Positions 1,598 through 18,426 of a stretch of DNA of 32,000 nucleotides are shown here, piece after piece. The stretch comes from Mucisphaera calidilacus (GTDB lineage Bacteria; Planctomycetota; Phycisphaerae; Phycisphaerales; Phycisphaeraceae), in NCBI RefSeq assembly GCF_007748075.1, contig NZ_CP036280.1, positions 1,860,001 through 1,892,000 on the forward strand, read 5' to 3'. Position 1 is the first letter of the stretch. Each line of letters begins with the position of its first letter. Under the pieces are notes generated by a model that had not been told where the DNA came from, made no database searches, and saw only the letters and a program-made list of their open reading frames with translations. The translations under genes were made by a program, and so were the position numbers.

Positions 1598-2947
1598 TCA
1601 ACGCTCGTAGTAACCCACCAGCCCGAGGAACCGGTTCTGGTTGAGCACCGGGATCGAGAGGGCCTGTGCCTGTTCGAGCAGGCGTTCGTACTGGTCGGCG
1701 TTCTGGATCGCGCGGGCGTGCTGCTCGATCAGGACGGGGTCGATGACGGTGCTGGGCAGCGGCGCGGGGCGGATCGGGCGGACGCCAAGCACGAGGAAGT
1801 CGACCTCGTAGTTCAGCTCGTCGACCAGCTCGCCACCCCAGCGGGTGACCATGCCCTCGATGCGGCTGCGATCGCCCTGCGAGGGGTTGCCGCGGTCGGT
1901 GAAGTCGAACTGCCCGAAGACGTAGAACTTGGAGGAACGATCGCGGTCGTAGGCGACGTTGACGATGCTGTCGCTCTCGCTGAGCACGGCGTTGCGTTCG
2001 AGGCGGACGATGCGGCAGACCGCGGTGTTCTCCTCGATGGCGATGACCTCGACGGTGCCGATGCCACGGACCTCGCCCTCGCGGTCGGTGCGGATCAGTT
2101 CGCCGGCGGGGATGACCTCAAAGGTCAGGCCGAGCTGCAGACGATCCTGCTTGCCGAGGTTGATGTAGACCTGGTTCTTCTCGTCGGCGACGGCGACGAT
2201 GCGGCCGTCGGGCGTGATGACCTGGTTGACCTGACCCTCGCCCTGGATCTGCTCGATGAGCTGCTGGACGCGGCGTTCGAGCTGGCGGACCTGCTGATCG
2301 AGCCCCTGGATCGATCCCTGCTGCTCGCGGATCTGCTGGTCCTTGTCGCTCCGGACGCGGGTCAGGAGGTTGGAGTAGCGTCCCTCGGCGTTGTCCATCT
2401 TCTGCATGGACTCGGAGTAGGCGCCGGCGAGCTGCTCGAACTGAGCCTGCAGCCGCTGAGCCGCCTGATTGAACCGCTGACGCGTGGTGGCGAGTTCCCG
2501 GTTGGCTTCTTCAAGGTCACCACGCACGTCGGCGAGGGCCTGCTCCTTGGCGTCGACCTGGGCCTGCGCCTGCTCGAGGTCGTTCTCGAGCCGGGTCACG
2601 GTGCGGAGCAACGAGCTGTCGCCCTTGGCCTTGACCTGGGTGTCGACGTCGGTCATGGGCAGAGCGGCGTCGACGCCGATGATGGACCGCAACTGCTGGT
2701 TCTCGGCGAGCATGACGCCCACGACCGACTGGCCACGGCCGGCCTGTTCCTTGTAGACCCCGACCTCGGGCGAAGACTGCTCCGACCGGGTGGCGTAGGC
2801 GTTGAGATCGTTGGTGGCGGATTCAGCCCGCTGGTTGGCCCCGCTGAGCTGGGTGTAGAACACCAGCGCCAGGATGCCGAAGACTACCGCCGCGATCGCC
2901 GCAAGGACGGCCGCAACCGTCACCGTGCTGTCCTGACCTCGTGCCAT
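1598..2947 (-). CDS. Hypothetical membrane-anchored coiled-coil protein
   Basis: 449-aa ORF. It has one N-terminal TM helix (VTVAAVLAAIAAVVFGILALVFY) and a long Q/E/R-rich heptad-like region (~aa 100-235). A beta-rich segment follows (GRIVAVADEKNQVYINLGKQDRLQLGLTFEVI...), then a C-terminal ~90 aa module. No family recognised with confidence. Coding periodicity supports this frame over the antisense 489-aa ORF. Confidence 0.7.
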   Translation of the reverse strand: MARGQDSTVTVAAVLAAIAAVVFGILALVFYTQLSGANQRAESATNDLNAYATRSEQSSPEVGVYKEQAGRGQSVVGVMLAENQQLRSIIGVDAALPMTDVDTQVKAKGDSSLLRTVTRLENDLEQAQAQVDAKEQALADVRGDLEEANRELATTRQRFNQAAQRLQAQFEQLAGAYSESMQKMDNAEGRYSNLLTRVRSDKDQQIREQQGSIQGLDQQVRQLERRVQQLIEQIQGEGQVNQVITPDGRIVAVADEKNQVYINLGKQDRLQLGLTFEVIPAGELIRTDREGEVRGIGTVEVIAIEENTAVCRIVRLERNAVLSESDSIVNVAYDRDRSSKFYVFGQFDFTDRGNPSQGDRSRIEGMVTRWGGELVDELNYEVDFLVLGVRPIRPAPLPSTVIDPVLIEQHARAIQNADQYERLLEQAQALSIPVLNQNRFLGLVGYYER

Positions 2948-9629: not shown

Positions 9630-10877
9630 CTAGAGCAGCGGCCCCACGCGTTCCACCACCCGCTCAACATCTTCACGCGACGGGAAGGCGCTCACGCGCA
9701 CGAAACCCTCGCCCGCAGGCCCCATCCCCGCCCCGGGCGTCACGACCACGTGCGCCTCACGCAGCAGGTGATCGAAGAACCCCCAGCTGTCCATGCCATC
9801 GGGCGTCCCGACCCACAGATACGGCGCGTTCTCGCCGCCGTGCACGCTCAGCCCCGCCGCACGGATCGCAGCGCCGAGCAATCGCGCGTTCTCCAGGTAG
9901 TAGGCCGCGCGCTCGCGCACCTGCGCCTTGCCCGCGTCGCTGTAGAGCGCCTCCGCCGCCCGCTGGACGATGTAGCAGACCGAGTTGAACTTGGTGCGCT
10001 GCCGACGCAGCCAGAGCGGGTTGAGCTGGACCCGATCATCCGCCGCCGTCTTCGCCGTCAACGCCTTGGGGATCACGCAGTAGCCGCAACGCGTGCCCGT
10101 GAACGCGGCGCTCTTGGAATAGCTGCGCATCTCGATCGCACACTCGGCCGCGCCGTCGCACTCGAAGACCGAGTGCGGGACCGCCGGGTCCGTGATGAAC
10201 GCCTCGTACGCCGCATCAAAAAACAGCAGCACGTCACGCTCGCGGGCCCAGTCGACCCACGCCTGCAGCGCTTCCTTGCCGATCGCCGCGCCGGTCGGGT
10301 TGTTCGGATAACAGAGGTAGACAACGTCGACCGGCTCCGTCGGCTTGGGCGGGTCGAACCCATTGTCGGGCGTCATCGCCAGGTAGAGCAGGCCCTCGTA
10401 CCCGCCGCCCTCCAGCCCCGCGCCGGTGTTGCCCGCGATCACGTTGGTGTCGACGTAGACCGGATAAGCCGGGTCGGTGATCGCCATCCGGTTCACCCCG
10501 CCGCTCGCGAGCAGGTCAAGGATGTTGGCGCAGTCCGACTTCGCACCGTCCGAGATGAACACCTCGTCGAACGCGATATCACACCCGCGTGACCGGAAGT
10601 CGTGCTCGGCGATCGCCTCGCGCAGCCAGTCATACCCGACGTGCTGGGCGTAGCCGTGGAAGCTGTCGGCCGAAGCCTGCTCGTCCACCGCCTTGTGCAT
10701 CGCCTCGACACACGCCGCCGGCAGCGGCTGGGTCACGTCGCCCAGACCCATCTTGATGATCGGCTTGTCGGCGACCGCCCCGGCGTGCTCCTGCGTGTAC
10801 GCCTCCACCCGACGGGCGATCTCGGGAAACAGGAACCCGCTCTGGAGCTTCAGGAAGTTCTCGTTCACACGTGCCAT
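9630..10877 (-). CDS. dapL: LL-diaminopimelate aminotransferase
   Basis: 415-aa ORF. The N-terminus MARVNENFLKLQSGFLFPEIARRV is highly characteristic of DapL, and the PLP-lysine region reads SYSKSAAFTGTRCGY. Its ATG overlaps the alaS stop by 1 nt. Confidence 0.9.
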   Translation of the reverse strand: MARVNENFLKLQSGFLFPEIARRVEAYTQEHAGAVADKPIIKMGLGDVTQPLPAACVEAMHKAVDEQASADSFHGYAQHVGYDWLREAIAEHDFRSRGCDIAFDEVFISDGAKSDCANILDLLASGGVNRMAITDPAYPVYVDTNVIAGNTGAGLEGGGYEGLLYLAMTPDNGFDPPKPTEPVDVVYLCYPNNPTGAAIGKEALQAWVDWARERDVLLFFDAAYEAFITDPAVPHSVFECDGAAECAIEMRSYSKSAAFTGTRCGYCVIPKALTAKTAADDRVQLNPLWLRRQRTKFNSVCYIVQRAAEALYSDAGKAQVRERAAYYLENARLLGAAIRAAGLSVHGGENAPYLWVGTPDGMDSWGFFDHLLREAHVVVTPGAGMGPAGEGFVRVSAFPSREDVERVVERVGPLL

Positions 10878-13720
10878 CAGCCGCCTACTTTCTCGGCCAC
10901 GAATGCCCGGGCCGCCTCGACCGCCTCGTCCGCCTTGCCCGGGTCACGCCCGCCGGCCTGCGCCATGTCCGGCCGCCCGCCCCCGCCGCCGCCCACGACC
11001 GGAGCGATCGCCTTGACCCAATCGCCCGCCTTGAGGCCCTTGCCGATCAGGTCCTTCGGCACCGCCGCGAGCAGCGCCACCTTCTCCGCGCCGACACCCA
11101 CGAGCATCATCGGACTCGCCGGCAGCTTGCTCCGTACGACGTCCATCGCCGTCCGCAGCGCGTTGGCATCGGCCCCCTCGATCTTAGCGACCACCGGCTC
11201 TCCGTCGATCGACGAGTCCGCCAGCGCACGGGCCACGTCGGCCACCGCCGACGCCGCCTCCTTCGCCTGCTCCTTCTGCGCCGCCTTAAGCGCGTCCTGA
11301 AGCGACGCCAACTTCTCCCGCACCGACTGCTTGATCACCAGCGGGATCACAGCCGACTCCAACTCCTTGCCGAACTCCGGCAGCGCCTCCGCCAGCCTCG
11401 CCGCCGGCGCACCCTCCAGGCTCTCGACACGGTTCCGCAGCATCTCGCCCGTGCTCTGGGCACGATGCCCCGCCTCGCCCGTCAGCCCCGTCAGGCGACG
11501 AATCCCCTTGGCCACGTTCTCCTCGCTCAGGATCACAAAGCCCTGCGCCTCGCCCGTCTGACGCAGGTGCGTCCCGCCGCAGAACTCGATGCTCAGCCTC
11601 GCCCACTCCGCCTTCTTCGGCTCCGCGAGCAACGCCCCGAGGTCCGCGCCGATCGACACCACCCGCACCCGAGGCGGGTACTTCTCGCCGAACACCGCCC
11701 GCAGGCCGTTGATCCTCAGCGCCGCCTCCTGATCCGCCACCTCCGCGTAGACCGGCAGGTCCGCCGCGATGTCATCGTTCACCTGCTTCTCGACCGCCGC
11801 CACCTGCTCCAGCGACACCGGCCCGTCATTCGAGAAGTCGAACCGCAGCTTCTCGTCGTCCACCAGCGACCCGCGCTGCATCGCCTCCTCGTTTACCAGG
11901 TCACGCAACGCACGATTCAGCACGTGCGTCGTCGTGTGGTTCGCCATGATCTTCCGACGACGCTCCTCGTCCACACGCATCACGATCGGCCGCGCCTCAT
12001 CCAGTCGCTGCGCCAGCGTCGGCTCCGTCACGACTCCGATATGGAACCACACGCCGCCGATCTTCTGCGTGTCCTCGACACGCATCGCGGCGCCGCACTG
12101 ACACGCGATCGTCCCCGTGTCCCCCACCTGACCGCCCGCCTCGCCGTAGAACACCGTGCGCTCGGTCACCAGCACCACGCGGTCCCCCGCCACGGCCTGC
12201 TCCACGGCCGACAACCCGTACTCGGCCATCGCGAACAGCCACCGCTTGGACTGATGCTCCGCGTCCGCCGTCCCGTCGATCGCCACCGCCTCATAACCGA
12301 GGAAATCGGTATCCGGTAGGTCATGCTTCTGCACCAGCTCGATCAGGTGCTGCTTGAGGTCCGCCGTACCCGCCTCGCCACGCGACACGTCGGCGTGCTT
12401 CGCCTTCGCCCGCTCGTAACCCTCCAGGTCGACCGTCAGGCCGCGCTCCTCCGCCATCACCTGCGTCAGCGAAATCGGGAACCCGTAGGTCGCTTCGAGG
12501 TCGAAGGCCGTGTCACCCGGCAGCGTCTGCCCGTTCTTCAAACCCTCGGTCGCCTTGTCGAAGATCCCGATCCCCCGCTCCAGCGTCCGCCGGAACGAAA
12601 TCTCCTCCTCCTTCAGCTCCGCCTCGATCGCCGCCGGGTTCTTCGTAATCTCCGGGAACGCCGCGCCCATGTGCTCCACCACCGCCGGCACGAGCTTGTA
12701 GAGAAACGGTTCCTCCACGCCCAGCGTCTGGTGGCCGAAACGCACCGCCCGACGCAAAATCGTCCGCAGCACAGCGTCACGCGCCTTGTTCCCGCAGTGC
12801 GCCCCGTCCGCCAGCGCGAACGTCAGGCAGCGCACGTGGTCGGCGATCACGCGGTACGCCACGTTGATCGGGTCTCTCAGCGGGCCCTCCGAACCGCCCG
12901 GCTCGTACGCACGCCCGTATCCCGTCGCCTTCTGGATCGCCTCGAACAAAGGCCCGAAGACGTCGGTATCGTAGTTGCTGTCCTTGCCCTGAAGCACACG
13001 CACGATGCGCTCGAAACCCATCCCCGTATCGACGTGCCGCGCCGGCAGCGACTCGAGTTGGCCGCCCGCCGTCCGGTTGAACTGGATAAAGACCAGGTTC
13101 CAGATCTCGATCACGTCCGGGTTGTCGGCGTTCACGAGCCGACCGCCCTGCTTGTCCGCCGTCCCGTCGTAGTGCAACTCCGAACAGGGCCCGCACGGAC
13201 CGACGTCGCCCATCTCCCAGAAGTTGTCCTTCTTGTTGCCCGGGTGGATGCGCTCCTCCGGCAGGTAACGCCCCCACAGCGCCTTCGCCTCGAGGTCCGG
13301 CTCCAGCCCCTCCGCCTCGTCACCCTCGAAGTACGTCGCGTGCAGCCGCTCGGGGTCCAGCCCCCACTGATCCACCAGCAGCTCCCACGCCCACGCGATC
13401 GCCTCCGCCTTGAAGTAATCCCCGAACGACCAGTTGCCCAGCATCTCGAAGAACGTGTGGTGGTAGGTGTCCTTGCCCACGTCGTCGAGGTCGTTGTGCT
13501 TGCCCCCCGCGCGGATGCACTTCTGCGTGTTCGCGGCCCGCTTCGACTCGGGCTCCTCCGTGCCCAGAAAATAGGGCTTGAACTGGTTCATGCCCGCGTT
13601 GGCAAACAGCAGCGTCGGGTCGTCATGCGGCACCACCGGCGACGACACCACGTTGCGGTGGCCGTGCTTCTCCACGAAAAACCGCACAAACTGCTCGCGT
13701 ATCTCAGAACTGGTCAACAT
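10877..13720 (-). CDS. alaS: Alanine--tRNA ligase
   Basis: 947-aa ORF with MLTSSEIREQFVRFFVEKHGH, FANAGMNQFKPYFLG, RAGGKHNDLDDVG, the editing-domain HTTTHVLN and CGGTH motifs, and a C-terminal DHHA1-like GGGGGGRPDMAQAGG. Confidence 0.95.
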   Translation of the reverse strand: MLTSSEIREQFVRFFVEKHGHRNVVSSPVVPHDDPTLLFANAGMNQFKPYFLGTEEPESKRAANTQKCIRAGGKHNDLDDVGKDTYHHTFFEMLGNWSFGDYFKAEAIAWAWELLVDQWGLDPERLHATYFEGDEAEGLEPDLEAKALWGRYLPEERIHPGNKKDNFWEMGDVGPCGPCSELHYDGTADKQGGRLVNADNPDVIEIWNLVFIQFNRTAGGQLESLPARHVDTGMGFERIVRVLQGKDSNYDTDVFGPLFEAIQKATGYGRAYEPGGSEGPLRDPINVAYRVIADHVRCLTFALADGAHCGNKARDAVLRTILRRAVRFGHQTLGVEEPFLYKLVPAVVEHMGAAFPEITKNPAAIEAELKEEEISFRRTLERGIGIFDKATEGLKNGQTLPGDTAFDLEATYGFPISLTQVMAEERGLTVDLEGYERAKAKHADVSRGEAGTADLKQHLIELVQKHDLPDTDFLGYEAVAIDGTADAEHQSKRWLFAMAEYGLSAVEQAVAGDRVVLVTERTVFYGEAGGQVGDTGTIACQCGAAMRVEDTQKIGGVWFHIGVVTEPTLAQRLDEARPIVMRVDEERRRKIMANHTTTHVLNRALRDLVNEEAMQRGSLVDDEKLRFDFSNDGPVSLEQVAAVEKQVNDDIAADLPVYAEVADQEAALRINGLRAVFGEKYPPRVRVVSIGADLGALLAEPKKAEWARLSIEFCGGTHLRQTGEAQGFVILSEENVAKGIRRLTGLTGEAGHRAQSTGEMLRNRVESLEGAPAARLAEALPEFGKELESAVIPLVIKQSVREKLASLQDALKAAQKEQAKEAASAVADVARALADSSIDGEPVVAKIEGADANALRTAMDVVRSKLPASPMMLVGVGAEKVALLAAVPKDLIGKGLKAGDWVKAIAPVVGGGGGGRPDMAQAGGRDPGKADEAVEAARAFVAEKVGG

Positions 13721-13824
13721 CGTCGGTTCCTTCCAATCGGGTCGCGAGTATATCGGTCACCGCCCCGCAGCGGTTGCTCGGGGCCCGCGCACCCCGCTCC
13801 GCCCTCGCCTGCTAGACTGCCAGC

Positions 13825-15069
13825 ATGCCTTCAGTCTGCCTCTATTTTCAGGTTCATCAGCCCGAGCGACTCCGTCGGTACTCCGTCTTCGACGCCGAGG
13901 CGAACTACTTCGACCCCGCCCGCAACGCCGAGATCCTCCGCAAGGTCGCCGCCAAATGCTACCTGCCCGCCACGCAGGTGCTCCTCGAGCAGATCAACCG
14001 CCACGACGGCGCCTTCCGCGTCGCCTTCTCCCTCACCGGCACCATCATCGAGCAGTTCCAGCAGTACGCGCCCGACGTCATCGACCGCTTCCGCAAGCTC
14101 GCCGAGACCGGCTGCGTCGAGTTCCTCGCCGAAACCGCCAACCACTCGCTCGCCTTCCTCTACAGCCGCGACGAGTTCATGGAACAGGTTGAGATCCACG
14201 CCGACCTCGTCGACCGTCTCTTCAACCAGCGCCCCACCGTCTTCCGCAACACCGAACTCATCTACAACAACGACCTCGCCGCCGCCGCCGCCGAGATGGG
14301 ATTCCGAGGCGTCATCGCCGAGGGCGCCGACGGCCCCCTCAACCAGCGGACACCCAACAACGTCTACCGCCCGCCCCACGGCGACATCGGCATCCTCCTC
14401 AAGAACTACAAGCTCTCCGACGACATCGCCTTCCGCTTCTCCAACACCAACTGGGCCGAGTACCCCCTCACCGCCGCCAAGATGGCCCGCTGGATCCACC
14501 AGCTCGGCACCTGCCCCGAGGGTCAGCAGCCCCCGCCCGGTCCCGCCGCCGAACGACCCGCCCAGCTCTGCAACCTCTTCATGGACTTCGAGACCTTCGG
14601 CGAGCACCAGTGGTCCGAGACCGGCATCTTCGAGTTCCTCCGCGAATTCCCCAAGGCCGTCCTCGAAACCGGCGACACCTTCATGGTCCCCACCGAGGCC
14701 GTCGACGCCTACCCCCCCGACGACGTCTACGACTGCCCCCAGATGACCTCATGGGCCGACTCCGAACGCGACCTCTCCGCATGGGTCGGCAACGCCATGC
14801 AGTCCTCCGCACTCCACGAGCTCTACCGCCTCGGCCAACGCATCAAAGAAGCCGAAAGCGAACAGCTCCTCGCACTCTGGCGACGACTCACCACCTCCGA
14901 TCACTTCTACTACATGGCCACCAAGTACCACGGCGACGCCGCCGTCCACGACTACTTCTCCCCCTACCAGTCACCCTACGACGCCTACATCAACTTCATG
15001 AACGTCCTCGACAACCTCCGCGCCCGCGTCGAGGCCGCCGCGCCGGCCGAAAAACTCGCCGCCGAGTAG
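13825..15069 (+). CDS. Glycoside hydrolase family 57 protein (alpha-amylase-like)
   Basis: 414-aa ORF with the GH57 N-terminal signature CLYFQVHQPERLRRY, then NTELIYNNDL and FMDFETFGEHQW blocks. Very strong C-ending codon periodicity. Confidence 0.85.
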   Translation: MPSVCLYFQVHQPERLRRYSVFDAEANYFDPARNAEILRKVAAKCYLPATQVLLEQINRHDGAFRVAFSLTGTIIEQFQQYAPDVIDRFRKLAETGCVEFLAETANHSLAFLYSRDEFMEQVEIHADLVDRLFNQRPTVFRNTELIYNNDLAAAAAEMGFRGVIAEGADGPLNQRTPNNVYRPPHGDIGILLKNYKLSDDIAFRFSNTNWAEYPLTAAKMARWIHQLGTCPEGQQPPPGPAAERPAQLCNLFMDFETFGEHQWSETGIFEFLREFPKAVLETGDTFMVPTEAVDAYPPDDVYDCPQMTSWADSERDLSAWVGNAMQSSALHELYRLGQRIKEAESEQLLALWRRLTTSDHFYYMATKYHGDAAVHDYFSPYQSPYDAYINFMNVLDNLRARVEAAAPAEKLAAE

Positions 15070-16051
15070 CCATAGTGCCGAGACATGCACAACATGAACT
15101 CCAAGGAAGCGCACGAATCTAGAACCATTACTGACCTGACGCGTAGAAATATAATCGACGATATACGAGTCTCGAAGATTGATTGGTCTGGCCGACTTAA
15201 TGAGGACGACTTTTTGTCAAGGCTATATCCGCTCGATGATATGCCCTCAACAGATCAACGCTTCAACAGTGCCCTATATGACATCCGTACACATCGGATC
15301 ACTTTCGAGGATTGGGATGAGGATTGGGTGTTCGACGATCCTAGATTCGAACTAAGGTGGGGTGATGATAGCAAGCTACTTGCTTTTCTCTGCGAAATGG
15401 TCAATCCCATGGTTCGAAACGATAAGAATGAAGTGGCTGAGCTCGTAGAGAAGTTCAACGACCACCTAAGACCGGACGGATGGCAGTTGATACCTGCTAC
15501 TGAGATCTCTGGAAGACCAGTCTTTGCCCCACGGCGTCTCACCAACATCACGCCAGCGGGTCTGTCAGCAGCCTCGGAAGCGGCTGAGTTACTTGACAGT
15601 GAGTACATTCAAGTACAGATAACTCGAATGCAAACTTCCATAGAATCCGATCCCGAGCTGGCTATCGGATCAGCCAAGGACTTTCTGGAGACTATCTGTA
15701 AGACGGTTAACAGTAAATGTGGCTCATCACCTAAGGCTGATGGCTTCCCTGCATTAGTAAGATGTGCTTTAGATCAGGTGAGTTTTGATCTGGAAGGTGT
15801 AGAGAATCCCAAACGAGCTGAAGAATCAATCAGGCGACTAGTTGGAAACCTCAGCGGTGTAGGCAAGGCTGTTTCGGAAGTCAGGAATACAGTCGGTTCC
15901 GGACATGGGAAGCACGCTGGAGCATTAAACCCTAGTTCAATCTATGCCCGTCTTGTAGTAGGTTCAGCAATCACTCTTGGCGTATTTTTATTTGAATCGA
16001 TTCTACGCGGTGAAGACCCAGCCATGATTACTGATGGCTAAGCACTAAACC
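15070..16051. other. Low-GC (about 40%) horizontally acquired single-gene islet
   Basis: Hand count of 15121-15180 gives 24/60 G+C, versus roughly 65-70% on both sides. The composition changes abruptly at the GH57 stop (15069) and the ubiD stop (16052). Host-rare codons (AGA, ATA, TTA, CTA) are frequent. Confidence 0.75.
15085..16041 (+). CDS. Abortive-infection-type protein: AbiJ-like N-terminal domain fused to a C-terminal Abi_C/HEPN domain
   Basis: 318-aa ORF. The N-terminal half (ITDLTRRNIIDD...WSGRLNEDDFLSRLYPLDDMPSTDQRF...EDWDEDWVFDDPRFEL...FLCEMVNPMVR...DGWQLIP..EISGRPVF) resembles AbiJ-NTD (NTD3/4-type) domains. The C-terminal half (LAIGSAKDFLETICKTV ... EVRNTVGSGHGKH ... ) resembles Abi_C, with an Rx6H HEPN motif (R267..H274, nt 15883-15906). 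No Shine-Dalgarno is visible, and an alternative ATG lies at 15094. Confidence 0.7.
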   Translation: MHNMNSKEAHESRTITDLTRRNIIDDIRVSKIDWSGRLNEDDFLSRLYPLDDMPSTDQRFNSALYDIRTHRITFEDWDEDWVFDDPRFELRWGDDSKLLAFLCEMVNPMVRNDKNEVAELVEKFNDHLRPDGWQLIPATEISGRPVFAPRRLTNITPAGLSAASEAAELLDSEYIQVQITRMQTSIESDPELAIGSAKDFLETICKTVNSKCGSSPKADGFPALVRCALDQVSFDLEGVENPKRAEESIRRLVGNLSGVGKAVSEVRNTVGSGHGKHAGALNPSSIYARLVVGSAITLGVFLFESILRGEDPAMITDG

Positions 16052-17746
16052 TCACAACCCCAACTCCCCCCACCGCTCCGTGACCCGCCGCCTCACATCC
16101 TCCTGCATCTCCAGAATCGGCGGGAAGCTCCGCACCGCGTGACCGCCGCACTCCTCGCCCGGCCACTTCTTCGTCGCGTCAAACCCGATCTTGTGACCCG
16201 CCCCCAGACGCGGCGCCGCGTGGTCCAGGATGTCCAGCGGGCCGTTCACGATCTCCAGATCACGACCCGGATCGCAGTTCGCAGCGATGTGGAACAGCAC
16301 CGCCTGCTCGTCGTGCACGTCCACCGTCTCGTCCACTACCACGATCGACTTCGTCCAAGCCATCTGGCCCGCGCCCCAGATCGCGTGCATCACCCGCCGG
16401 GCCTGCAGCGGATAGCTCTTCCTGATCTTCACGAACGCGCAGTTGTGGAACGCCCCGAACATCGGCAGGTGGTAGTCCTCGATGTCCGGCACAAGAATCT
16501 TCAGCAGCGGCAGGAACAGACGCTCCGTCGCCTTGCCCAGGTAGTAGTCCTCCTGAGGCGGAAGACCCACGATCGTCGCCGGGTAGATCGGCGAGCGCCG
16601 GTGTGTCACCGCCGTCACCGTGAAGACCGGGTAGCGGTCGGGCAGCGAGTAAAAACCGGTGTGATCCCCGAACGGACCCTCGAACACCGCGCCCGGCCCC
16701 AGCTCCGGCTCCCTGCCGTCCGGCCCCTTGACCCGCGGATCAAAACCGATCGGCCCCGCCTCCGTGCTCACATACCCCTCGATCACGATCTCTGCGTTCG
16801 CGGGCACGTGCATGTCGATCGTCCGACACCGCACCAGCGGGATCGACCCGCCGTTGAGACACCCCGCCATCAGCAGCTCGCTCACCCCAGGCGGCAGCGG
16901 CGCCGTCGCCGCGTAAGGCAGCACGCTCTCGCCCCCCAGCACGATAGCCGCCGGCATCCCCGCCTCGGGCTGACCCAGCCGCCGGTTGTGCGCCTGCCAC
17001 GCCCGCCAGTGACGCGCACCGTCGTGATGCACGTGCCAGTGCATCGCGCAGTGATCACGGTCGATCAGCTGCGCCCGGTACATCCCGATGTTCCGGCTCG
17101 GCCGCGGCTTGCCCTCCGCCTTGCCCGCGTCGTCCGGATGAATCGTGTAGACACCCGACAGCGTGATGTACCGCCCCTGCCCCTTCGCCGTCCCGCTCCG
17201 CTCCGCCGACCACGGGTACCCGCACGACGTCGGGTCCCCATCGCCCGGCCAGCACTTGATCACCGGCAGCTCGAACAGGTCGATCTCACCCCCCTGCTTC
17301 ACCACCTCCTGGCACCGGCCGCTCCGCACGACCTTCGGCGGCAGGCTCGCGATCTTCGCCAGCTCCAGGCCCTTCTTCACCTTGCCCCAGATCGTCGTCG
17401 GCGGCTCCGGCTTCACCAGCGCCCCGATCTTCGCCGCCACACCCTCGAACCCCACGTCCTCACACCCGAACGCCATCTCCATCCGCCGGTAGCTGCCGTA
17501 CAGGTTCATCCCAAGCGGCATCGACGCCCCCGCCACGTTCTCAAACAGCAACGCGTGCCCGCCCAGCCCCGCGTGACCTGCATCAAACGCCGCCGCGTGC
17601 TCCGAAGCGCGCGCACAGGCCGACTTGCTCACGCGGTCGGTGATCTCGGTCACCTCAAGAATCGGCGAGACCTCAGGCGTCACCCGCCGCAGCTCGCCCG
17701 CCCGATCCAGAGCTTCCACAAATTCCTGGAGGTCGCTGTATGGCAT
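16052..17746 (-). CDS. UbiD family decarboxylase (prenyl-FMN dependent; menaquinone/ubiquinone-type aromatic decarboxylase)
   Basis: Starts at MPYSDLQEFVEALDRAGELRRV (ATG at 17746), the typical UbiD N-terminus. Also has NLYGSYRRM, GRYITLSGVYT, NIGMYR and FGDHTGFYS blocks. The 60-codon upstream extension in the track (to 17926) overlaps the preceding methyltransferase gene and is probably not translated. Confidence 0.9.
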   Translation of the reverse strand: MPYSDLQEFVEALDRAGELRRVTPEVSPILEVTEITDRVSKSACARASEHAAAFDAGHAGLGGHALLFENVAGASMPLGMNLYGSYRRMEMAFGCEDVGFEGVAAKIGALVKPEPPTTIWGKVKKGLELAKIASLPPKVVRSGRCQEVVKQGGEIDLFELPVIKCWPGDGDPTSCGYPWSAERSGTAKGQGRYITLSGVYTIHPDDAGKAEGKPRPSRNIGMYRAQLIDRDHCAMHWHVHHDGARHWRAWQAHNRRLGQPEAGMPAAIVLGGESVLPYAATAPLPPGVSELLMAGCLNGGSIPLVRCRTIDMHVPANAEIVIEGYVSTEAGPIGFDPRVKGPDGREPELGPGAVFEGPFGDHTGFYSLPDRYPVFTVTAVTHRRSPIYPATIVGLPPQEDYYLGKATERLFLPLLKILVPDIEDYHLPMFGAFHNCAFVKIRKSYPLQARRVMHAIWGAGQMAWTKSIVVVDETVDVHDEQAVLFHIAANCDPGRDLEIVNGPLDILDHAAPRLGAGHKIGFDATKKWPGEECGGHAVRSFPPILEMQEDVRRRVTERWGELGL

Positions 17747-17781
17747 ACCGCCATGATAGAGCCCCCCACGCCGACGAGTCA

Positions 17782-18426
17782 CTAGACACGCGTCCCGACA
17801 AACACCGCCCGCGTCAACCGCGAGCCGTCCGCCTCCGACCAGTCGCTCGGGAAATCCGGGTGATCCGGCTGCGTCTGGGTCTGATACGCCCTCGGAAACA
17901 GCTCGCTCAGACGATTCACCACCCACGCCCGCGTCGGCCGGCAGCCCGTCCCGCTCACCGCCTGCGACGGGCAGTGCGCGTGCTCCCCCTCCATCTCGAT
18001 CCGGTCCTCATCACCCAACGCCACGCACGTCGAGACCACCATCGTCTCGCCACAACGCTCCGCCATCCACCGCAGCGCCTCCAGCGGCCGCGACAGGTGA
18101 TACAGCACGCCATACGCGAACACGACGTCAAACGTCTCGTCCCACGCCGGCGGGTCATCGAGGTCCGCGACACGCACCTCCGCCGCCGACTCCGCCGCGT
18201 ACCGCTCCCGGTACACAACCGCGTTCGCCTCACGCGGCTCCACCGACACCACCGAGCAACCCCGGTCCAGCCAGAAGTGTGTCAACTCACCGATCCCCGC
18301 GCCCAACTCCAGCACGCGCCGGCCGTGCAGATTCAGCCCCAGCGTCGCCAGGTGCTCCAGCCGTCGGCTGTTGATCCGCAGCGCCTCGGGCTTGCGAAAC
18401 TCCGCAACCGGGTCCGTCACCCTCAT
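17782..18426 (-). CDS. Class I SAM-dependent methyltransferase
   Basis: 214-aa ORF with motif I VLELGAGIGELT, the post-I acidic residue in VVSVEP, and motif II/III DVVFAYGVLYHL. There is an ATGA start/stop overlap with the upstream PH-domain gene. Confidence 0.8.
   Translation of the reverse strand: MRVTDPVAEFRKPEALRINSRRLEHLATLGLNLHGRRVLELGAGIGELTHFWLDRGCSVVSVEPREANAVVYRERYAAESAAEVRVADLDDPPAWDETFDVVFAYGVLYHLSRPLEALRWMAERCGETMVVSTCVALGDEDRIEMEGEHAHCPSQAVSGTGCRPTRAWVVNRLSELFPRAYQTQTQPDHPDFPSDWSEADGSRLTRAVFVGTRV

Follow-up and report, generated by a model that had tools for sequence, protein, structure and literature searches.

What does a gene of conspicuously foreign base composition, set between two convergent host genes of the planctomycete Mucisphaera calidilacus, encode, and how did it come to lie there? 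The stretch considered here is 32,000 nt of NZ_CP036280.1 (the window; all positions are window positions), and the gene, termed abiJ, is quite probably a horizontally acquired, single-gene abortive-infection or defence module of the AbiJ family that has no separate partner gene. In this module, an AbiJ-NTD3 domain, the presumed sensor and auto-inhibitor, would be joined to an Abi_C/HEPN ribonuclease (RNase) in one polypeptide. The open reading frame (ORF) and its parts are as follows, with residues given as amino acids (aa).

15085-16041, + strand: abiJ-like gene, 957 nt, 318 aa from the first ATG, with stop codon TAA at 16039-16041 (from ORF translation).
15127-15627, + strand: AbiJ_NTD3 domain (aa 15-181), alpha+beta; Pfam PF18860, E=2.5e-52, 177 bits (cut-off 32.5), model positions 2-167 of 167.
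15601-16005, + strand: C-terminal helical HEPN-type domain (aa ~173-307), from PF14355, the alignment, AlphaFold2 (AF2) helices and Foldseek.
15883-15906, + strand: HEPN catalytic motif R267-N268-TVGSG-H274 (R-phi-X5-H), from sequence mapping and conservation.

Both domains had been recognised by eye in a preliminary description of this DNA, and profile searches bear them out. The N-terminal PF18860 match is full length, the peptide motifs quoted by eye are present in the translation, and Abi_C (PF14355) is matched over aa 224-304 (nt 15754-15996; E=8.1e-13; 48.7 bits, cut-off 24; model positions 3-83 of 83). The PADLOC model for AbiJ, PDLC02347, gives a partial match (aa 107-303; model positions 91-274 of 281; E=1.5e-7; 29 bits). 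A search of NCBIfam with the abiJ protein matched no model, that of PHROGs gave one weak match, to a family without known function, across the HEPN part, and neither a sequence search for relatives of solved structure nor a search of a viral structure library produced a match. The protein is 100% identical to QDU71641.1 / WP_236254259.1 / UniProt A0A518BXD9, which bears the RefSeq name “abortive infection family protein”; the RefSeq start is the second in-frame ATG, at 15094, giving 315 aa versus 318 aa for the ORF from 15085. Among ~15 billion proteins it forms a cluster of its own at 90% identity, and the nearest relative (homologue P0002) is 61% identical. The search found 561 homologues, patchily distributed across phyla and including several planctomycete metagenome-assembled genomes (MAGs) among their carriers; both NTD3 and Abi_C are present in 120/120 of those among the matches listed.

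The catalytic motif of the C-terminal domain is intact. The preliminary description had placed an Rx6H motif, R267-NTVGSG-H274, at nt 15883-15906, where it is indeed found, and had proposed loss of the R/H pair in homologues as a test of its reading; in an alignment of 38 homologues (42-61% identical to the abiJ protein), both residues are kept in 38/38. Invariant in this alignment are E265, R267, G271, G273, H274 and G275, and N268 is the majority residue at its position. The segment forming the first HEPN helix (DPELAIGTAKEFxETxCK, or more loosely DPELAIGxAKxFxETxCK) is almost invariant, and, measured against every aligned homologue, the abiJ ORF is full length. The spacing also corresponds to that most often seen elsewhere, R-phi-X5-H with five spacer residues being the commonest form of the motif among 2,815 Abi_C proteins (PMC13590631). 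An AF2 model built from the 38-sequence alignment (predicted local distance difference test, pLDDT, 88; predicted template modelling score, pTM, 0.61) displays an alpha+beta N-domain followed by a C-terminal helical bundle with helices at aa 173-212, 221-229, 242-270 and 285-307. Comparison of this model with the Protein Data Bank (PDB) using Foldseek, the structural check that had been suggested, places HEPN proteins at the top by probability (1o3u, 0.97; 2hsb, 0.89; 1ufb, 0.84) and also lists Csm6 (5fsh), but none of these matches has a significant E-value.

The N-terminal domain belongs to a family of 1,343 protein clusters at 50% identity, whose members range from 130 to 1,733 aa. NTD3 is also found fused to TIR domains (P0134, P0140, P0244), protein kinases (P0147, P0149), KAP NTPases (P0186, P0197) and STAND-type NTPases, and this modularity is what would be expected of a sensor or regulatory module. 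About 35 NTD3 residues, many of them charged or polar, hardly vary from one effector fusion to another; they include R59, D66, H70, D76, W77, W81, D85, R87, H107, N125, D131 and S142. The domain is predicted with pLDDT ~97 over aa 20-150, and an NTD3-only AF2 model (pTM 0.78) has no counterpart in the PDB according to Foldseek. Some 30 homologues with both NTD3 and Abi_C, of 430-456 aa, carry an additional N-terminal extension of ~125 aa that has no Pfam annotation (e.g. P0014, aa 1-125). In addition, two Streptomyces plasmids (NZ_CP109471.1, 473001-473807; NZ_LN831789.1, 36972-37799) encode proteins annotated as “Shedu anti-phage system protein SduA domain-containing” that match abiJ aa 1-276/283 at ~30% identity, which suggests that NTD3-type domains and Shedu nucleases may be linked.

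The composition of the gene sets it apart from everything around it. Its immediate surroundings are the following, with GC3 denoting the G+C fraction at third codon positions.

13825-15069, + strand: GH57 glycoside hydrolase gene, flanking host gene; PF03065, E=3e-71; GC3 0.91.
15070-15084, no strand: left junction, 15 nt from the GH57 stop to the first abiJ ATG, with no AGGAGG-like Shine-Dalgarno (SD), promoter-like or terminator-like site.
16042-16051, no strand: right junction, 10 nt from the abiJ stop to the convergent UbiD stop, without a terminator.
16052-17926, - strand: UbiD-family decarboxylase gene, flanking host gene convergent with abiJ; PF01977, E=9e-63; GC3 0.85.

The gaps reported earlier, 15 nt after the GH57 stop (15069) and 10 nt before the UbiD stop (16052), are thus reproduced, as is the hand count of 24/60 G+C at 15121-15180. 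Over the whole ORF the G+C content is 47.5%, versus 66.0% in the rest of the window, and abiJ is the lowest-GC 957-nt stretch of the 32 kb, at about -5 standard deviations (window mean 0.655, standard deviation 0.035). By codon position the values are 0.56/0.42/0.45 for abiJ, 0.64/0.41/0.91 for GH57 and 0.69/0.49/0.85 for UbiD, so that the gene is, as had been observed, outside the C-ending codon dialect of the host (GC3 0.45 vs 0.85-0.91). Codons AGA, ATA, TTA and CTA had been said to be nearly absent from the neighbours; together with AAT they number 6/5/5/7/6 in abiJ and 0/0/0/1/0 in GH57 and UbiD combined (~1040 codons). The reasoning of the preliminary description on both composition and motif was therefore accurate.

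The genomic contexts of homologues point in the same direction. Seven were read from longer contigs, a small and non-random sample, and 5/7 are associated with defence or mobile functions. Three lie at type I restriction-modification (R-M) loci: P0003 (60% identity) between hsdS and an Mrr-type nuclease gene within an R-M operon, P0014 between hsdS and hsdR, and P0008 in a locus dense with MC6, DUF2326, DUF3644, reverse transcriptase and SIR2 genes. P0031 comes after a Ymh-HEPN gene and ahead of brxA and brxB (Ymh plus a bacteriophage exclusion, BREX, island), and P0046 adjoins a type IV secretion system (T4SS), as in an integrative and conjugative element (ICE). In the remaining 2/7, P0113 and P0002, the gene stands by itself amid housekeeping genes. 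Because no neighbour is conserved across the seven contexts, the abiJ-type protein is autonomous. Homologues also occur on 51 plasmids, 28/51 of which are conjugative or mobilizable, and are nearly absent from phage genomes. A Phycisphaerae MAG (L083, 244-12939) displays a dense embedded defence island in which six genes separate hsdS from hsdR (unannotated, MC6, DUF2326, the AbiJ homologue, DUF3644 and reverse transcriptase), followed by SIR2.

Homologues embedded in R-M loci match the G+C content of their surroundings (57-65%), whereas the solo ones form GC-poor islets (gene vs surroundings: P0002, 47.3% vs 62.6%; P0113, 53.4% vs 63.6%). Since the R-M-embedded homologues of high-GC hosts have a G+C content of 57-65%, the low value of abiJ is a mark of recent arrival rather than a constraint of the family. 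Recent horizontal acquisition, as proposed in the preliminary description, is supported by this composition and by the places where homologues are found (R-M operons, a BREX island, an ICE and plasmids).

The nearest homologue offers a hint as to how single-gene islets may travel. The P0002 gene (locus L084) starts 37 nt downstream of a tRNA-Arg(CCT) gene (L084 4507-4580), and at the contig end (5590-5674) the DNA looks like a tRNA T-arm in reverse complement (GGATTCGAACC), so that the gene has the appearance of a tRNA-flanked single-gene islet; the window has no such landmark. Flanking DNA common to the window and L084 was considered and ruled out, alignment similarity being confined to the ORF.

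Searches of the window and its genes agree with the earlier statement that no integrase, tRNA, direct repeat or partner gene is visible. No tRNA was found in the window, no flanking direct or inverted repeats of abiJ rose above chance-sized matches, and neither an integrase nor a transposase occurs among the 20 neighbouring genes scanned, every one of which, where a family could be assigned, is a housekeeping gene. No antitoxin gene or minimal nucleotidyltransferase (MNT) partner stands beside abiJ, both neighbours being GH57 and UbiD across junctions of 15 and 10 nt. A tandem-repeat RNA antitoxin adjoining the gene is likewise absent (the only arrays in the window lie inside GH57, at 14277-14740), and an Rfam scan of the window found no family. 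An antisense ORF within abiJ (15255-15608, - strand, 117 aa) was considered as a hidden partner and rejected as a chance ORF: its translation is Ser-rich and of low complexity, its position is not conserved in seven homologous genes, and the equally GC-poor L084 has no equivalent. The preliminary description was thus right that no partner adjoins abiJ, but the “missing” partner is no puzzle, since regulation or sensing is expected of the fused NTD3, and no neighbour is conserved beside the homologues.

The junction itself was compared through GH57, which as a query recovered 80 loci from species-representative genomes (best 62% identity) and 80 metagenome loci (best 61%). Neither UbiD nor AbiJ was found near the GH57 orthologue at any of these loci (0/160, flanks of 5-6 kb). 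Therefore, abiJ is not ancestrally linked to GH57, and the GH57-ubiD junction is specific to the Mucisphaera lineage.

How such a tightly enclosed gene might be expressed is a separate matter. The preliminary description had noted the lack of an SD sequence and of an obvious promoter, and none was detected at the junctions; on the + strand, no promoter-like site occurs in either of them. Given the 15-nt gap without a terminator, read-through from GH57 is probably the simplest route of expression, and the GH57 promoter region (13721-13824), which lies between GH57 and the divergent alaS gene (10877-13720, - strand), is the nearest plausible source of abiJ transcription. GH57, abiJ and ubiD are packed with gaps of 15 and 10 nt, with no terminator-like hairpin between the convergent pair, and transcripts from either side would consequently run antisense into the opposite gene.

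The proposed mechanism follows the best-supported model, in which NTD3 detects some part of the invader and keeps the HEPN toxin in check until infection releases the RNase (Anantharaman et al., 2013; PMC3710099). In the uninfected cell, NTD3 would hold the HEPN domain inactive. An infection-associated cue would then act on NTD3, and the HEPN domains, probably as a dimer with a composite R-N-x5-H active site, would cleave single-stranded RNA. Cleavage could stop translation and abort the infection, or else block an incoming mobile element. The gene is probably functional as a stand-alone defence gene and may confer phage defence on strain Pan265.

The architecture is not new. NTD3 joined to an AbiJ/Abi_C HEPN domain was described by Anantharaman, Makarova, Burroughs, Koonin and Aravind (2013, Biol Direct 8:15; PMC3710099), and abiJ has the same two domains, with full-length Pfam matches and the Rx6H motif conserved. 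The association with R-M and other conflict systems holds for its homologues, and the fusions of NTD3 to TIR, kinase and ATPase effectors are as in that paper. There is no architectural difference; abiJ departs from these proteins as a divergent singleton (<=61% identity) that stands alone among housekeeping genes and carries the substitutions N74F and H107N. A later survey sorts Abi_C proteins into no-NTD, NTD3, NTD4, NTD5 and Sdh5 types, with AbiJ-NTD3 a separate type of 510/2,815 (PMC13590631). The earlier judgement that such a module is essentially unexplored was therefore overstated: the architecture dates from 2013, 510 such proteins were catalogued in 2026, a RefSeq name had already been given and homologues are present in several planctomycete MAGs. 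Thus, abiJ is an ordinary but divergent AbiJ-NTD3/HEPN member of a known and already annotated family rather than a discovery.

Among characterised proteins, SadR of Staphylococcus aureus, an Abi_C-domain RNase of 266 aa, is a useful comparison (Kondo et al., 2026, Nat Commun 17:9986; PMC13590631). Its substitutions R225A, N226A and H232A abolish both Mg2+-dependent cleavage of single-stranded RNA and phage defence, and its 30-kDa chain runs at ~66 kDa on native polyacrylamide gel electrophoresis (PMC13590631). The two proteins share the R-N-x5-H spacing (RNTVGSGH in abiJ, RNEYGDAH in SadR) and a C-terminal Abi_C/HEPN domain, a likeness of motif and domain rather than one from whole-sequence comparison. 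SadR is a defence determinant encoded by one gene and acquired with mobile DNA, as abiJ probably is. AbiJ of Lactococcus lactis (Abi-859, plasmid pND859), the prototype of the DefenseFinder/PADLOC models, is also a single-gene abortive-infection protein with a C-terminal HEPN domain, but the match leaves out the initial ~90 positions of the prototype model, so that the N-terminal part is not demonstrably the same, and host, G+C content and vehicle differ. By analogy, abiJ would follow the sensor-plus-HEPN logic of the CARF/SAVED-HEPN effectors (Csm6/Csx1) and the HEPN-MNT pairs, in which RNase toxicity is held in check until a signal arrives; it has, however, no CARF or SAVED domain, CRISPR locus or MNT neighbour, and its NTD3 fold matches nothing solved.

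Several observations weigh against a working defence module. No promoter, SD sequence or terminator of its own was detected for abiJ, so that its expression is unproven, and convergent transcription of ubiD could run antisense through it. The Foldseek matches to HEPN proteins have non-significant E-values (0.3 or higher). Unlike most of the homologues examined, the gene lies outside any defence island. No experiment with an NTD3-type AbiJ was found in the literature, nor has a mechanism been worked out for the lactococcal AbiJ (PMC13064643). Finally, abiJ is altered at two near-invariant NTD3 residues, N74F (15304-15306) and H107N (15403-15405). It could be that abiJ is a stranded, silent or decaying passenger, dropped recently between two core genes (detached, for example, from a type I R-M or other defence island), that has no meaningful expression or has lost its response to the trigger, and so brings the host no benefit. 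This we consider unlikely, although it would account for the missing expression signals at junctions of just 15 and 10 nt, for a codon usage very poorly matched to the host and for a gene that stands orphaned while P0003, the closest relative with a well-defined context, is part of an R-M operon. The ORF is nonetheless intact and full length, with all of the invariant family residues and the whole catalytic motif, and the solo placement of P0002 and P0113 among housekeeping genes indicates that standing alone is normal for the family. As to the two substitutions, Asn74 and His107 are kept in 23/24 NTD3s of other, non-AbiJ architectures and in 34 and 36 of 37 AbiJ-type homologues, respectively; F74 is nevertheless common to abiJ and its nearest homologue P0002, and P0018 and P0140 likewise have N107, which argues that both are tolerated variants.

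A different function for an active protein is harder to sustain. If abiJ were a selfish toxin or addiction-type element, or a factor in competition between mobile genetic elements (anti-plasmid or anti-conjugation) rather than a phage-triggered abortive-infection protein, one could point to homologues on conjugative plasmids and beside a T4SS, to the many HEPN RNases that serve as toxins of toxin-antitoxin systems (PMC3710099), and to SadR, which also lowers plasmid acquisition (PMC13590631). Such a role seems very improbable here, where neither an antitoxin (a protein gene, an MNT partner or a tandem-repeat RNA) nor an Rfam element lies next to abiJ; the homologues in R-M and BREX loci speak for general anti-invader defence, and this explanation overlaps with the favoured one without excluding it. 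That abiJ is a host housekeeping RNA-processing enzyme of unusual composition is scarcely credible. It does lie among core genes (alaS, pheT, ubiD, proC, accA) and is possibly co-transcribed with GH57, but it is a singleton at 90% identity in the ~15 billion proteins and has no relative closer than 61%, none of the 160 GH57-orthologue loci has an AbiJ nearby, its relatives are patchily distributed and occur on plasmids, and its GC3 is 40 points under that of host genes.

The acquired single-gene defence module thus favoured is of modest practical value, a clean, scar-free acquisition in a cultured member of the Phycisphaerae whose compact, intact NTD3-HEPN protein is suited to testing. To our knowledge, phage defence has not been studied experimentally in this class. 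More broadly, the gene bears on the question of what the AbiJ-NTD3 domain, which is fused to four or more effector classes, detects. Conceivably, NTD3 is a conserved ligand-binding or enzymatic module of unsolved fold, analogous to CARF/SAVED, that responds to a single universal sign of infection, such as a messenger derived from nucleotides or some feature of nucleic acids, and relays it to interchangeable effectors (HEPN, TIR, kinase, KAP/STAND NTPase) and is not a recognition domain specific for phage proteins. We regard this as distinctly unlikely; it is suggested by the ~35 residues kept across all effector fusions, which would be unusual for a domain that tracks fast-evolving phage proteins. 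If it were true, the Mucisphaera copy, with N74F and H107N, would be a natural variant of the site in question.

The strain from which the window derives, Mucisphaera calidilacus Pan265T, has a published genome of 3,486,541 bp with 63.9% G+C and no plasmid, and its nearest cultured relative stands at 90.1% 16S identity (PMC8882080). Real genes of the window were recognised by GC3 >=0.82, and those with a family, in addition to the ones described above, encode a lipid A acyltransferase, FliM, PheT, a UbiX-like flavoprotein, an aminotransferase, AlaS, a methyltransferase, ProC, TyrA, AccA, SulP and a type II secretion system (T2SS) ATPase. An ORF at 1598-2947 (- strand, 449 aa) has a host-like GC3 of 0.90 and no real Pfam family, its matches being sub-threshold and of coiled-coil type (FBF1, phage scaffold). 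Within the GH57 coding region, a 24-nt unit is repeated imperfectly in tandem at 14688-14740 (2.2 copies, 79% matches), which gives a short peptide repeat near the C-terminal third. The UbiD ORF is 624 aa long, and ~69 residues precede its UbiD_N match, so that the true start may be downstream of the listed GTG. The gene for the UbiX-like flavoprotein (PF02441; 8542-9156, + strand) is not adjacent to ubiD and lies 7 kb from it.

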